Shown: positions 8,026-44,659 of the stretch, piece after piece
Position numbering within the stretch: the stretch's first letter is position 1
Layout: the number at the start of each line of letters is the position of its first letter
NCBI RefSeq assembly: GCF_988242995.1
Contig: NZ_OZ547043.1
DNA length: 64,000 bases
Direction: 5' to 3' (one strand)
Notes under the pieces: generated by a model
Seen by the model: only the letters and a program-made list of their open reading frames with translations
Told to the model about the DNA's origin: nothing
Databases searched by the model: none
Made by a program: the position numbers and the translations under genes

Positions 8026-8310
8026 ACAAATTCCTTACTGAATATACTGCGCTGCACTATACGGGGTTAATAAAATAAAGCCAGCGATATTTAAGACCGC
8101 CGGACGGCTAAAATAAAATTTGCTTAATCTCAATTATCATGCGTTAATAGCTGCGTCGGTTTGAAAGACAGACAGCATACAAAGTAGTTTACTAAAGCAG
8201 TTCTCATTATCAGGCATTATCCCCTTCTTTTGAGTCTCTCTCCTGAACACTAAGTAGTTTCTGTATTAAAGCCCTGTTTGCCGAAAGGCCCAAAATGAAG
8301 GAAGTAAAAT

Positions 8311-8523
8311 ATGTCTAATAAAATGACTGGTTTAGTAAAATGGTTTAACGCAGATAAAGGTTTTGGCTTTATCACTCCTGATGATGGCAGCAAAGACGTT
8401 TTCGTCCATTTCACCGCCATCCAGAGCAATGAATTCCGCACGCTGAACGAAAATCAGAAAGTTGAATTTTCTATTGAGCAGGGGCAGCGTGGCCCTGCGG
8501 CAGCGAACGTTGTTACGCTCTAA
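8311..8523 (+). CDS. cspG: cold shock protein CspG
   Basis: 70 aa CspA-family ORF ([21 protein letters not shown]), divergent from cspH. Confidence 0.92.
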
Positions 8524-8533
8524 GGTTGCCGTT

Positions 8534-8722
8534 ATTACTCAACATCTCCATTTCCGCTGTCCATGTTGTCATGGTTCACAGTACCGCACATCGGCATTCG
8601 ATGTGACGGAGCGAAACCCTTTGGGCGCTAAGTGTATTTTTTGTAAATCGACGATGATCACCTTTGATAACGTCGCGCTGCAAATACGCACTGACCATGC
8701 GCCGCTGGATTTCACAAAATAA
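8534..8722 (+). CDS. possible small zinc-ribbon protein (ymcF-like); start codon uncertain
   Basis: Open frame encoding CPCCHGSQYRT...CIFCKS (two CxxC pairs) between cspG and ymcE; no canonical start downstream of cspG stop. Confidence 0.3.
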   Translation: MTQHLHFRCPCCHGSQYRTSAFDVTERNPLGAKCIFCKSTMITFDNVALQIRTDHAPLDFTK

Positions 8723-41275: not shown

Positions 41276-42340
41276 ATGGTAACGTCCTGTACTGGACATG
41301 TTTTAGATAATCAGCGCGCCACCACTCGCGGAGATTTCTCCTCCGGTAGCAACTTCGTCACTTTGTATTTTCAACCTCATCCTTTCTTTTCATGTGTTAC
41401 CGACGCCGTAAACGGTGCGCGTAGCCGTTTTTCGGCATTTTATCCAAAAGCAAACTATGGCTTACAAGGAAGCCAACCCTCTGATGTTCGTGCGCATAAT
41501 CGCGCTGCCAACGGCGCGTGTGATGAATACAAACAACTCAAGGTGCTCTCCATGGGAAGACAAAAAGCAGTGATCAAAGCTCGTCGCGAGGCAAAACGTG
41601 TGCTGAGACGGGATTCGCGCAGCCATAAGCAGCGTGAAGAAGAATCGGTCACCTCGCTTGTGCAGATGAGCGGCGTAGAAGCCATTGGTATGGCCCGCGA
41701 CAGTCGCGATACCTCGCCCATCCTCGCGCGAAATGAAGCGCAATTGCACTATCTGAAGGCTATTGAGAGTAAGCAGCTGATATTCGCCACGGGCGAAGCC
41801 GGGTGCGGAAAAACCTGGATCAGCGCAGCAAAAGCGGCAGAGGCCCTGATACATAAGGATGTCGACAGGATTATCGTCACCCGTCCAGTTCTGCAAGCCG
41901 ATGAAGATCTTGGCTTCTTACCTGGAGATATCGCAGAAAAGTTTGCTCCCTATTTTCGTCCGGTCTACGACGTGCTGGTCCGGCGCTTAGGGGCTTCCTT
42001 TATGCAGTACTGCCTGCGACCGGAAATAGGGAAGGTGGAAATTGCGCCGTTCGCCTATATGCGTGGACGTACCTTTGAAAATGCAGTCGTCATTCTTGAC
42101 GAGGCGCAGAATGTGACTGCCGCGCAAATGAAAATGTTTTTAACCCGCCTCGGGGAGAACGTGACGGTTATCGTCAACGGTGATATCACGCAATGCGATT
42201 TGCCTCGCGGCGTGCGCTCCGGATTAAGTGACGCGCTGGAACGTTTCGAAGAAGATGAAATGGTCGGGATCGTCCGATTCGGTAAAGAGGATTGCGTACG
42301 TTCGGCACTTTGCCAACGTACGCTACATGCATACAGTTAA
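41276..42340 (+). CDS. phoH: phosphate-starvation-inducible ATPase PhoH
   Basis: 354 aa, Walker A GEAGCGKT; translation may start at a downstream Met. Confidence 0.9.
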   Translation: MVTSCTGHVLDNQRATTRGDFSSGSNFVTLYFQPHPFFSCVTDAVNGARSRFSAFYPKANYGLQGSQPSDVRAHNRAANGACDEYKQLKVLSMGRQKAVIKARREAKRVLRRDSRSHKQREEESVTSLVQMSGVEAIGMARDSRDTSPILARNEAQLHYLKAIESKQLIFATGEAGCGKTWISAAKAAEALIHKDVDRIIVTRPVLQADEDLGFLPGDIAEKFAPYFRPVYDVLVRRLGASFMQYCLRPEIGKVEIAPFAYMRGRTFENAVVILDEAQNVTAAQMKMFLTRLGENVTVIVNGDITQCDLPRGVRSGLSDALERFEEDEMVGIVRFGKEDCVRSALCQRTLHAYS

Positions 42341-42357
42341 GTGTATTATCGGTACAG

Positions 42358-42388
42358 AGCCCGGGCGAACCGGGCTTTGTTTTATTTC
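42358..42388 (+). terminator. rho-independent terminator after phoH
   Basis: agcccgggcgaaccgggct stem followed by T-rich run. Confidence 0.7.
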
Positions 42389-42902
42389 ATTAACAGCAAA
42401 GACTTTCACTTCAGGTTAACGTTCAGGGGGGCGACTTTGAGCGTGTTGATAAGCTGAAATGAATTCTGGTTTAGATACTCTTACCAGGCATTTTTCGTCA
42501 TAGCACCCGACCAGTGTAATGCCGCCAGCGCGGAGAGTTTTTTGCCTATCTTTTTCCAGCCATTCAACCTGTACAGGAGGTCTGGTGCCAATTTTGCGTA
42601 TGAGGTTTAATCAGCAATGGGCCATAATTTGACTGACTGATTAACACCGAATATATTCTCCTGATTTTATTTTTTAGGGATAATATTAAAAATATAAGGT
42701 TAATCTTAATTAATTCTTCAGCTAATATTGTGTGTTGTTATTTTTTGTGGACGGCAAGCCGCAATGGCAAAATAGGTATGGTTGTAATAATCAAAACATG
42801 ATACTAACTATATATAGATCGTTGAATTGTTGGCATGTAACTCGCTACAGCGAGTAGCGTTAGTAATGAAATATAATCAACATGGATAGGTGAAGATTAA
42901 TT

Positions 42903-43589
42903 ATGAGCTTTATGGTTTTTGTAACTTGTTTGACAATTGCATTTGTCGCCGGTTTTGCTGTTGCCAGAAAATTGACACTCCGAAAAGTTGCCTCATCGGT
43001 AATCATCACTAGATCGCAACCAGTCCCTTCCTCTGCAACTTCCCCTGCGGCTAAGGCGTCGACAAGGAGCTATACACCGCAGAAAACCTATCGTGACTCT
43101 CGTTGGCAAGAACGAGATGAGTTGTTCCAGGGAATGGTTGCCGAAGGTATTTTATTGGAAGGAAAAGAGTGGTTAATTACGCGTTGTGAAAAAATTTATT
43201 TTGATAATCTGGAGAAATGGTTTGGACATTATTGTCATATCCATTGCCAGGTCTCTCTGGGGCGCTTGATCAACTTTCCAGAACAACCCGAGTTTAGCGA
43301 AGAAGAAAGAAAGCGTTTCTTTGCAATTTATAATGGAATGGCAATGGATTATGTTCTGGTTTCAAAGAAGAACAATAAAATAGTCTGTGTTATTGAGCTG
43401 GATGATCCGAGTCATGAAAGGGCAGATCGCATTATTCGTGACCGTTGGTTGAATACGATTATGACTATTGCACGGGTGCCTTTTGTACGAGCTTCTGTCA
43501 CTAAATTGGATGAAATCCCTCCGGTCTGGGATACCCGTGACAAAATTCGCCCATTAGCCGCGGCGACAAAGGGTGAACCGTTGCATTAA
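42903..43589 (+). CDS. membrane-anchored protein with DUF2726 / restriction-endonuclease-like C-terminal domain (accessory)
   Basis: 228 aa; N-terminal hydrophobic helix (FMVFVTCLTIAFVAGFAV); C-terminal DYVLVSKKNNKIVCVIELDDPSH resembles DUF2726; AT-rich 5' region. Confidence 0.7.
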   Translation: MSFMVFVTCLTIAFVAGFAVARKLTLRKVASSVIITRSQPVPSSATSPAAKASTRSYTPQKTYRDSRWQERDELFQGMVAEGILLEGKEWLITRCEKIYFDNLEKWFGHYCHIHCQVSLGRLINFPEQPEFSEEERKRFFAIYNGMAMDYVLVSKKNNKIVCVIELDDPSHERADRIIRDRWLNTIMTIARVPFVRASVTKLDEIPPVWDTRDKIRPLAAATKGEPLH

Positions 43590-43595
43590 CTAAGT

Positions 43596-43674
43596 ACCCC
43601 GGTCGGGGCTCCTCATCCCCCCGGTGTGTGCAATATACGAAAAAAAAGCCCGTACTTTCGTACGAGCTCTTCTT
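43596..43674. repeat. left copy of serX 3'-flank repeat (part A), interrupted by IS200
   Basis: 79 bp nearly identical to 44488-44565. Confidence 0.8.
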
Positions 43675-44385
43675 GTGCACAGAAAACCCCCAGCTAGGCT
43701 GGGGGTTCCGGAAAGCTTTCAGCTTTGAGCCAGTTATTAAAACCCCTTTTGATTTGTTAAAACACCTTGCGGTCTGGCAACTGCAAGTGTCAAACAAGAA
43801 ATCAAAAGGGGGTCCCAATGGGGGACGAAAAGAGCTTAGCGCACACCCGCTGGAACTGTAAATATCACATAGTTTTTGCGCCGAAATACCGAAGACTGGC
43901 GTTTTACGGAGAGAAGCGTAGGGCGATAGGCAGTATTTTGAGAAAGCTGTGTGAGTGGAAAAGCGTACGGATTCTGGAAGCAGAGTGCTGCGCAGATCAT
44001 ATCCATATGCTTGTGGAAATCCCACCCAAAATGAGCGTATCCGGCTTTATGGGATATCTGAAAGGGAAAAGCAGTCTGATGCTTTACGAGCAGTTTGGGG
44101 ATTTGAAATTCAAATACAGAAACAGGGAGTTCTGGTGCCGAGGGTACTATGTCGATACGGTGGGTAAGAACACGGCGAAGATACAGGACTACATAAAGCA
44201 CCAGCTTGAAGAGGATAAAATGGGAGAGCAGTTATCGATTCCCTATCCGGGCAGCCCGTTTACGGGCCGTAAGTAACGAAGTTGGATGCAAATGTCAGAT
44301 CGTGTGCGCCTGTTAGGGCGCGGCTGGTAACAGAGCCTTACAGGCGCATTTGAAAAACCTCCGGCTATGCCGGAGGATATTTATT
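43675..44385 (+). mobile_element. IS200-family insertion sequence (~711 bp, approximate ends)
   Basis: Left hairpin cccccagctaggctggggg, RBS-sequestering stem ccccttttgattt/aaatcaaaaggggg, tnpA, right hairpin cctccggctatgccggagg. Confidence 0.85.
43818..44276 (+). CDS. tnpA: IS200 transposase TnpA (HUH Y1 transposase)
   Basis: 152 aa from ATG 43818 (MGDEKSLAHTRWNCKYHIVFAPKYRR); HiH motif in ADHIHMLV, catalytic Tyr region GYYVDTVG. Confidence 0.9.
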   Translation: MGDEKSLAHTRWNCKYHIVFAPKYRRLAFYGEKRRAIGSILRKLCEWKSVRILEAECCADHIHMLVEIPPKMSVSGFMGYLKGKSSLMLYEQFGDLKFKYRNREFWCRGYYVDTVGKNTAKIQDYIKHQLEEDKMGEQLSIPYPGSPFTGRK

Positions 44386-44410
44386 TAAATATGGCGGTGA
44401 GGGGGGGATT
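44386..44410. repeat. left copy of serX 3' end repeat (part B): duplicate of last 19 nt of serX plus junction
   Basis: tttaaatatggcggtgagggggggatt vs tttaaagatggcggtgagggggggatt at 44564-44590. Confidence 0.8.
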
Positions 44411-44487
44411 GACTCGCTTCGCTCGCCCTGCGGGCAGCCCGCTCACTGCGTTCACGGTCTGTCCAACTGGCTGTCGCCAGTTGTCGA

Positions 44488-44590
44488 ACCCCGGTCGGGG
44501 CTTCTCATCCCCCGGTGTGTGCAATATACGAAAAAAAAGCCCGTACCTTCGTACGAGCTCTTCTTTAAAGATGGCGGTGAGGGGGGGATT
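44488..44590. repeat. right copy of ~104 bp direct repeat (serX 3' flank plus tRNA 3' end)
   Basis: Direct repeat of 43596-43674 + 44386-44410 with ~5 mismatches. Confidence 0.8.
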
Positions 44591-44659
44591 CGAACCCCCG
44601 ATACGTTGCCGTATACACACTTTCCAGGCGTGCTCCTTCAGCCACTCGGACACCTCACC
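44572..44659 (-). tRNA. serX: tRNA-Ser (anticodon GGA)
   Basis: 88 nt; minus strand reads GGTGAGGTGTCCGAGTGGCTGAAGGAGCACGCCTGGAAAGTGTG...GGGGGTTCGAATCCCCCCCTCACCGCCA with 7-bp acceptor stem, long variable arm, CCA encoded. Confidence 0.9.

Follow-up and report, generated by a model that had tools for sequence, protein, structure and literature searches.

Genetic organization of the locus and the predicted protein

The DNA analysed here (the window) is a stretch of 64,000 nucleotides from Escherichia coli (contig NZ_OZ547043.1 of the NCBI RefSeq assembly GCF_988242995.1), in which efeB, phoH, an open reading frame (ORF), an IS200 copy, serX, ghrA and ycdX follow one another. The ORF between phoH and the insertion sequence (IS) IS200 encodes a DUF2726 protein that is predicted to be tethered to the membrane, and it is the subject of this work. 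The exact protein is already recorded in E. coli (70 contigs), and the corresponding ORF in other strains carries the RefSeq label ‘DUF2726 domain-containing protein’. The guanine-plus-cytosine (GC) content of the gene is 43.4%, with 39% at third codon positions (GC3), which is foreign to the genome. The features of the gene and its product are as follows, with residues numbered in amino acids (aa) and model confidence given as the predicted local distance difference test (pLDDT).

42903..43589, plus strand: coding sequence of the predicted membrane-tethered DUF2726 protein, 228 aa, ATG start
42909..42968, plus strand: predicted N-terminal transmembrane (TM) anchor, aa 3-22, followed by RKLTLRK; N-out/C-in topology predicted from the AlphaFold model and the charge statistics of the family
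42987..43094, plus strand: disordered Ser/Thr/Pro-rich linker, aa 29-64 (17/36 residues Ser, Thr or Pro; pLDDT <50)
43095..43547, plus strand: conserved module, aa 65-215, predicted cytoplasmic, with an SRWxxRDELF motif helix and a DUF2726/Vsr-like PD-(D/E)xK core (Pfam part 43170-43517)
43188-43190, plus strand: E96, which completes the invariant acidic set, from conservation among relatives
43347..43415, plus strand: putative catalytic motif D149-x15-E165-L-D-D168-x2-H171 (DYVLV...IELDDPSH), from conservation among relatives

The initial annotation of this DNA, made from the sequence without database searches, had described a 228-aa ORF with one N-terminal hydrophobic helix, a Ser/Thr/Pro-rich linker and a C-terminal region resembling DUF2726 and a NERD-like fold. 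The ORF, its ATG start, the helix and the linker are all confirmed. In the AlphaFold model (mean pLDDT 78, about 90 in the domain), a helix spans aa 3-30 and is followed by disorder at aa 27-56 (pLDDT <50), a next helix and an alpha/beta core. The Pfam scan matched DUF2726 (PF10881) at aa 90-205 with E=2.8e-18, covering model positions 3-116 of 126, and the peptide quoted in support of the resemblance corresponds to residues 139-196. DUF2726 was the sole domain found at E<=10, with NERD absent, so that only the DUF2726 half of the proposal holds.

Fold, active site and family-wide architecture

DUF2726 has been grouped with Vsr and DUF559 inside the PD-(D/E)xK superfamily (PMC3424549). The alpha-beta-beta-beta-alpha-beta core of the model is superposable on known PD-(D/E)xK members, and the protein belongs to Pfam DUF2726 and to the Vsr-like branch of this fold, which bears out the restriction-endonuclease-like character first suspected for it. 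The family motif D...(I/V)ELD(D/G)xxH with a downstream RxxRD is present here as DYVLV...IELDDPSH...RIIRD. Among 60 diverse relatives (20-75% identity), the residues E96, D149, E165, H171, R179 and D180 never vary and D168 and R176 hardly do; judged by this conservation, the nuclease site therefore looks catalytically competent, with putative metal ligands. No sequence-level similarity to any solved structure was detectable. Vsr, DUF559 and I-Bth0305I (PDB 1cw0, 3hrl and 3r3p) share the active-site layout acid...D...E-x-D/G-x-x-H, but none of them has an N-terminal membrane anchor and linker like those found here, and the gene has no dcm partner and does not lie in an intron. It is not a Vsr gene proper: the NCBIfam and Pfam scans gave no Vsr match, and its neighbours are phoH and serX, with no methyltransferase.

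The profile search for the family returned 5618 clusters at 50% identity from many phyla, and the architecture was analysed in the 140 top-ranking representatives with a length of 140 aa or more. An N-terminal TM helix, with a median start 2 residues into the protein, is found in 121 of these 140, and the catalytic motif is kept in 137. The mean number of Lys plus Arg residues is 0.33 ahead of the helix and 4.3 behind it, in agreement with the positive-inside rule in 116/121 cases. Since the positive charges lie behind the helix, the nuclease domain is predicted to be cytoplasmic, held on the membrane through a variable linker; in the alignment of relatives, the region corresponding to aa 29-64 differs in both length and sequence. 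The long homologues contain either tandem DUF2726 domains or a signal peptide, an unannotated periplasmic region, a TM helix and DUF2726. Informative domain fusions were sought among them, and only these two forms were seen; the tandem forms give a hint that the domain works as a dimer, and nothing more.

Distribution and selection of the gene

The gene is carried by 1049 of 5426 complete E. coli genomes (19%) and absent from 81%, which makes it accessory and not a ubiquitous core gene. In 1043 of the 1049 carriers it is full-length and contiguous with phoH. Two allele groups exist among the carriers, with about 99% and about 95.6% identity, the latter including O26:H11. The gene likewise adjoins phoH in Salmonella, E. 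albertii and a cryptic Escherichia clade; the Salmonella copy has an IS downstream, beyond which lies sequence like the repeats flanking serX. Truncated forms exist as well, e.g. in S. Agona (151 aa). Compared with E. albertii, the ratio of nonsynonymous to synonymous substitution rates (dN/dS) is 0.03 for aa 65-215 and about 0.5 for the anchor and linker together (about 0.46 for the linker), with dS values of 0.41-0.47 for the gene and 0.32 for phoH. The low dN/dS and the full-length state in nearly all carriers indicate that the gene is not a degraded remnant, which was one of the two readings first offered for it. In our reading, it is an intact, old and selectively maintained resident of the phoH-serX interval. 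In K-12 the counterpart of the segment containing the gene is a block of about 10.9 kb, pgaDCBA-dgcT-IS3-ymdE-ycdU, by which the gene has probably been displaced in most E. coli lineages. At the tdc locus of Citrobacter there is a solitary copy with 91% identity to the Salmonella protein, so that the gene is also mobile by itself, as a cassette of one gene.

A functional link to phoH was considered as the reason for the synteny and rejected: a strong terminator and 350-560 bp separate the two genes, and the relatives in Citrobacter, Erwinia, integrative and conjugative elements (ICEs) and type VI secretion system (T6SS) loci are not next to phoH. Plasmid carriage was rejected too, since the close hits are only chromosome-sized records filed as plasmids, while true plasmid hits are 26-32% identical. 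The PLSDB ‘plasmids’ CP088669.1, NZ_CP141089.1 and CP061244.1 (0.7-4.9 Mb), which carry the chromosomal gene, are likely mislabelled. In addition, a ‘Collinsella sp.’ contig from a metagenome-assembled genome is 99% identical to the E. coli locus and looks mislabelled, as does a ‘Chryseobacterium sp.’ contig carrying the T6SS locus of a Citrobacter contig with near-identical marker matches (contigs L017 and L024).

Genetic contexts of the relatives

The contexts of the closest clades were examined at 37-75% identity. In five diverged ICEs (from E. coli, Dickeya, Pectobacterium and two metagenomic sources), the DUF2726 gene occupies the same slot, in the order DUF1525, TraU, two genes, TraG_N, an opposite-strand gene of 137-139 aa, sometimes a gene of 182-187 aa, DUF2726 and a downstream integrase, the last being absent from the fifth ICE, a truncated contig. 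The flanking genes match the families TIGR03755 and TIGR03756 of PFL_4xxx-type conjugative elements. The T6SS clusters of Citrobacter, Rahnella and Pantoea have the gene in the tssA-tssF interval, 18-50 nt away from its neighbours; both flank it directly, e.g. with gaps of 18 and 27 nt, and the 90%-identity cluster of the T6SS-embedded protein also has members from Enterobacter, K. aerogenes and Salmonella. In 2260 E. coli genomes, by contrast, the match is confined to the flanking tssA and tssF segments and comes in two pieces, which among the 12 matches listed are 586 bp apart with nothing annotated between them. This indicates that the gene is optional cargo in the T6SS slot and not a part of the machine, and a structural role in the T6SS was rejected on the ground that the E. 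coli clusters match only the flanks of the slot. At a metagenomic T6SS locus (L083, 6815-6985), tssA is reduced to an ORF of 56 aa while the adjoining DUF2726 gene is intact. In Erwinia the gene lies beside a VgrG island. More distant TM-anchored homologues follow the pI/pIV genes in Vibrio filamentous phages (7 GenBank phages), and inovirus markers were found on at least 33 contigs (33 of the 48 IMG/VR contigs found). We found no earlier description of a membrane tether with the domain in the cytoplasm as a trait of the whole family, or of the slots in ICEs (fixed) and T6SS clusters (optional), and the literature that a full-text search on ‘DUF2726’ brought up, as far as it could be consulted, reports neither a function nor a membrane architecture for the domain.

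For the T6SS-embedded homologues (loci L014/L023, proteins P0178-P0191), the NCBI start is an internal Met giving 145-150 aa, and a longer ORF of 219 aa is present. The internal start removes the TM helix and the SRWE..DLFWGM motif, both of which are conserved family-wide, and it is probably a systematic start-codon error.

No conserved partner ORF was found in any context examined, in agreement with the initial annotation, which saw no partner genes; the gene stands on its own, with a likely -10 box and a Shine-Dalgarno sequence belonging to it. Likewise, there is no toxin-antitoxin or effector-immunity partner, also of the T6SS type, at the locus, where no conserved ORF lies upstream and RtT repeats lie downstream. 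A scan against PHROGs returned only phrog_14167, to which no function is assigned. Nine relatives searched against PADLOC gave no significant match (seven none, two marginal with E values of 0.018 and 0.021).

Upstream region and promoter

The DNA directly upstream of the gene, about 250 bp of which had been noted as very AT-rich, contains the following features.

42640..42902, plus strand: AT-rich upstream/promoter region, 263 bp, 29.7% GC against 51% for the whole window
42840..42855, plus strand: imperfect palindrome with 7-bp arms and a 2-nt spacer, probably non-functional
42872..42877, plus strand: TATAAT, a likely -10 box, inside the 11-nt block TGAAATATAAT, from the alignment of alleles
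42888..42893, plus strand: Shine-Dalgarno-like AGGTGA, 9 nt 5' of the ATG, present in Escherichia alleles

The block TGAAATATAAT is identical in all eight aligned sequences of E. coli, E. albertii and Salmonella. Only this block and the stretch directly 5' of the ATG are conserved as far as Salmonella, whose upstream DNA cannot otherwise be aligned, and the TATAAT block is likely the promoter of the gene, judging from the alignment. A sigma-70-like site with 10/12 matches lies at 42629-42657.

The palindrome at 42840-42855 had been called perfect, which it is not: ACTCGCTACAGCGAGT and its own reverse complement ACTCGCTGTAGCGAGT differ at the two central bases, leaving a 7-bp stem with a 2-nt loop (ACTCGCT-AC-AGCGAGT). 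Its folding energy is ordinary (z=-1.57; 13 of 200 shuffles fold equally well), and neither E. albertii nor the O26:H11/CP53 allele keeps the stem, which uncompensated changes disrupt there; an operator or RNA element was thus rejected, as the palindrome is not conserved.

Further upstream, the segment 42384-42640 (about 250 bp) is conserved in every Escherichia allele, including E. albertii, and absent from Salmonella; compared with O26, CP53 and the cryptic clade, 27 nt are deleted in the window allele. The segment is closed in all six frames, with no Rfam match. A fuller island or an integrase remnant was sought in it by six-frame translation of three alleles and by tblastn with four integrases/transposases, and nothing significant was found. 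Every frame of the 560 bp upstream of the gene is interrupted by stop codons, and the alleles have no conserved ORF there.

Cassette boundaries, repeats and insertion sequence

The gene and its upstream DNA form a cassette whose limits and flanking features are given below.

42354..42380, plus strand: phoH intrinsic terminator, an 11-bp stem and a T-run, kept in all Escherichia alleles and dividing phoH from the cassette
42384..43595, strand not applicable: lineage-variable 1.2-kb cassette, 40.6% GC, from BLAST breakpoints against K-12 (42383 and 43596-43620)
43596..43674, minus strand: left part of an RtT-type repeat unit, cut by IS200
43675..44380, plus strand: IS200 copy, strain-specific by comparison with an uninterrupted strain; leader/STnc490 at 43685-43808 (Rfam), tnpA at 43818-44276
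44381..44565, minus strand: RtT-type repeat unit bearing a copy of the serX 3' end; Rfam RtT at 44392-44529 with 41.1 bits, below the gathering threshold of 45
44572..44659, minus strand: serX, tRNA-Ser(GGA), an island integration hotspot

Homology to K-12 ends at 42383 just past the phoH terminator and resumes within the repeats. These RtT-type repeats of about 180 bp, annotated as RtT in other strains, each carry a copy of the serX 3' end, and two to four units are found in K-12 (there downstream of serX) and other strains. Thus they belong to the locus as such and are no scar of the gene. The duplicated serX sequence reported earlier does exist (44381-44410, 93% identical to 44561-44590), but it belongs to this array and is not att-like. 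IS200 lies immediately downstream of the gene, as had been noted. The description of the site as an island hotspot is supported by O26:H11, in which an integrase island is inserted at serX and the gene remains by phoH, outside the island; on the other hand, no fuller island containing the gene, for which a comparison of the phoH-serX interval had been proposed, was found at the locus. The O26:H11 island (L079, 10313-18687) encodes a tyrosine integrase, a YfjI-family protein, an inovirus-type Gp2 and a ‘TOTE conflict system’ primase-domain protein. The hotspot adjoining the gene therefore does gather conflict systems.

The leader of IS200 (STnc490 RNA, plus strand) is complementary at 43773-43807 to codons 5-22 of the DUF2726 mRNA (42916-42968), with 30 nt at 80% and an overlapping 14 nt at 93%. 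The predicted duplex of -39.1 kcal/mol compares with -24.6 +/- 4.7 for other windows and is reached by 1/393 background windows and 0/200 shuffles. It is odd that IS200 sits 85 nt downstream of a gene with which it could pair; since this copy is strain-specific, the match may be due to chance. Opposite the 3' end of phoH, Rfam places Ysr251 (‘Yersinia sRNA 251’, antisense; sRNA, small RNA) at 42142-42335 on the minus strand, with 192.8 bits against a gathering threshold of 100. The other Rfam matches above gathering in the window are the cspA thermoregulator (8155-8577, plus strand), the ES056 sRNA (50260-50351, minus strand) and the ES036 (CssrF) sRNA (60445-60487, minus strand).

Comparison with known membrane-associated systems

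The closest likeness in design is to SNIPE, a membrane-bound GIY-YIG nuclease with a single TM helix, an outside N-terminus and a cytoplasmic nuclease, which cuts phage DNA during injection and is toxic without its TM helix (Saxton et al., bioRxiv 10.1101/2025.11.03.685801). The protein studied here is predicted to have the same topology, with a helix at aa 3-30, RK..RK after it and no charge before it. Both are single genes with a broad distribution, a variable N-terminal region and a conserved nuclease. However, the fold is GIY-YIG in SNIPE and Vsr-like here, the present protein is less than half the size of SNIPE, and the DUF4041 domain, which binds DNA and the tape measure protein, is absent (no Pfam or PADLOC match). 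Epona from a V. cholerae integron, a single-gene defence in which an Mrr_cat nuclease is fused to a two-TM holin-like domain (bioRxiv 10.1101/2024.07.02.601686), is similar in that a nuclease of the PD-(D/E)xK superfamily is joined to a membrane segment in a small protein. It differs in belonging to the Mrr and not the Vsr/DUF2726 subfamily and in its two holin-type helices, and the searches run showed no homology.

The genes for TraS of F and Eex of SXT lie next to traG. These two and gp15 of HK97, which are entry-exclusion and superinfection-exclusion proteins, are small inner-membrane proteins encoded by mobile elements, and the ICE-borne relatives of the present protein likewise lie by TraG_N. 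In contrast to it, they have no nuclease domain, block a partner protein and show no sequence relationship. HK97 gp15 is described as blocking genome injection at the membrane (bioRxiv 10.1101/2025.11.03.685801). The RAP/FASTK proteins differ in being eukaryotic organellar RNA-binding proteins with no membrane anchor and no detectable sequence similarity.

Possible function of the protein

Considering the architecture and the carriers together, we tentatively favour a membrane-tethered nuclease that acts on entering foreign DNA and is restricted by its location in the manner of SNIPE, an explanation that we find plausible while holding it with less than even confidence. A 2-residue N-terminus would lie in the periplasm, one TM helix would anchor the protein, and a flexible linker of about 35 residues would carry a PD-(D/E)xK domain of the Vsr/DUF559 class in the cytoplasm. 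The tether would hold the nuclease at the inner face of the membrane, where nucleic acid appearing there would be cut and the nucleoid spared. The likeliest substrate would be foreign DNA on its way into the cell, whether injected by a phage, taken up from a filamentous phage or transferred by conjugation, so that the protein may be a one-gene entry-exclusion or direct-defence nuclease, SNIPE-like but with a different fold and no adaptor. Expression would probably be kept low through the AT-rich upstream DNA, for which H-NS-type silencing is a guess. The recurrent carriers, ICEs and inoviruses, are elements whose own DNA crosses the membrane, which suits a role in exclusion or defence. For such a design SNIPE is an experimental precedent, and Epona is a second one.

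Several observations weigh against this explanation. In the absence of a DUF4041-type adaptor or DNA-binding domain, it does not account for how entering DNA is found. In its fold the domain is equally close to the RAP domains, which act on RNA. The protein matches none of the families of PADLOC-DB v2 at E<=1 and gave no match in the NCBIfam scan, and we infer both the promoter and H-NS silencing from the sequence only. Moreover, the 30 genes flanking distant chromosomal homologues are mostly housekeeping, with about 3 like those of mobile elements; enrichment of defence islands round these homologues, considered as a further argument, gained no support from this small sample.

The same surroundings would fit a physiological role, as the distant homologues stand alone among housekeeping genes in many phyla. 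The protein could then be a membrane-tethered endoribonuclease or RNA-binding protein with a RAP/FASTK-related fold that processes or degrades RNA, and not DNA, at the membrane, with an architecture like that of RNase Y, an established design of an N-terminally anchored cytoplasmic RNase. We regard this as unlikely, because the invariant constellation E...D...ExD..H matches the DNA-cutting Vsr/DUF559/I-Bth0305I group (PMC3424549), the nearest relatives reside on ICEs, inoviruses and T6SS islands, and the gene is accessory in E. coli. The intact nuclease site, the carriage on mobile elements and the lack of a partner gene would suit a one-gene effector of the toxin or abortive-infection kind, the latter having been suggested at the outset. 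It would stay inactive at the membrane until infection releases or activates it, and would then destroy the nucleic acid of host and phage and so kill the cell. An argument for such an effector is that some other proteins combine an AbiJ N-terminal domain with DUF2726 (PMC3710099), and the toxicity of SNIPE without its helix illustrates the latent danger of such nucleases. But no sensor domain, antitoxin or protease site is seen, no PADLOC Abi model matches, and the gene has long been kept on the chromosome under strong purifying selection with no visible regulator; an effector of this kind thus seems improbable to us, and a location-restricted nuclease of the SNIPE type would fit the architecture of the family at least as well as a suicide effector.

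It is more doubtful still that the protein is an accessory part of an envelope machine (the T6SS or the type IV mating apparatus of ICEs), the phoH-linked copy being an orphan. In its favour are the place that the gene takes, apparently co-transcribed, inside the tssA-tssF interval of Citrobacter, Rahnella and Pantoea, its fixed slot behind TraG_N in ICEs and the Erwinia copy by the VgrG island, whereas the E. coli tssA/tssF flanks that lack the gene mark it as dispensable cargo, the locus with the 56-aa tssA keeps it, the phoH-linked copy is strongly selected with no machine nearby, and the catalytic site is invariant. Lastly, a functionless remnant of an old island integrated at serX and drifting to loss would explain the foreign GC content, the hotspot, the absence from most genomes and truncated versions such as that of S. 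Agona. The selection analysis largely refutes it and we consider it very improbable, given the dN/dS of the domain with a dS similar to that of phoH, the full-length copies in nearly all carriers, the invariant catalytic residues and a -10 box conserved to Salmonella.

Implications for the DUF2726 family

The nuclease at the membrane that we favour for this locus could also be taken as the model for the family. TM-anchored DUF2726 proteins (the family has more than 5,600 clusters at 50% identity) might be a widespread ‘portal guard’ of one gene, for which place alone distinguishes foreign DNA from self, which is possible but doubtful at present. Such a guard would cut single- or double-stranded DNA at the inner membrane face, and it would serve as innate defence on chromosomes, as nuclease-based entry exclusion in ICEs, as superinfection exclusion in filamentous phages and as a companion barrier in T6SS islands.

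Even if this reading fails, DUF2726 could be annotated as a membrane-tethered, cytoplasm-facing nuclease domain of the Vsr class. The gene of the window is intact and under selection, and the phoH-serX interval offers a clean natural polymorphism, in which strains carry either the gene or the pga-dgcT-ycdU biofilm block. If the reading is true, the protein would be the smallest known defence nuclease that separates self from foreign DNA by location, with about 200 aa, one gene and no adaptor domain, and the SNIPE principle would also hold for a nuclease of unrelated fold whose family has thousands of members. We know of no such exclusion mechanism in PFL_4xxx-type ICEs or Vibrio filamentous phages, and the family would then provide an enzymatic mechanism for entry exclusion in the former and for superinfection exclusion in the latter.

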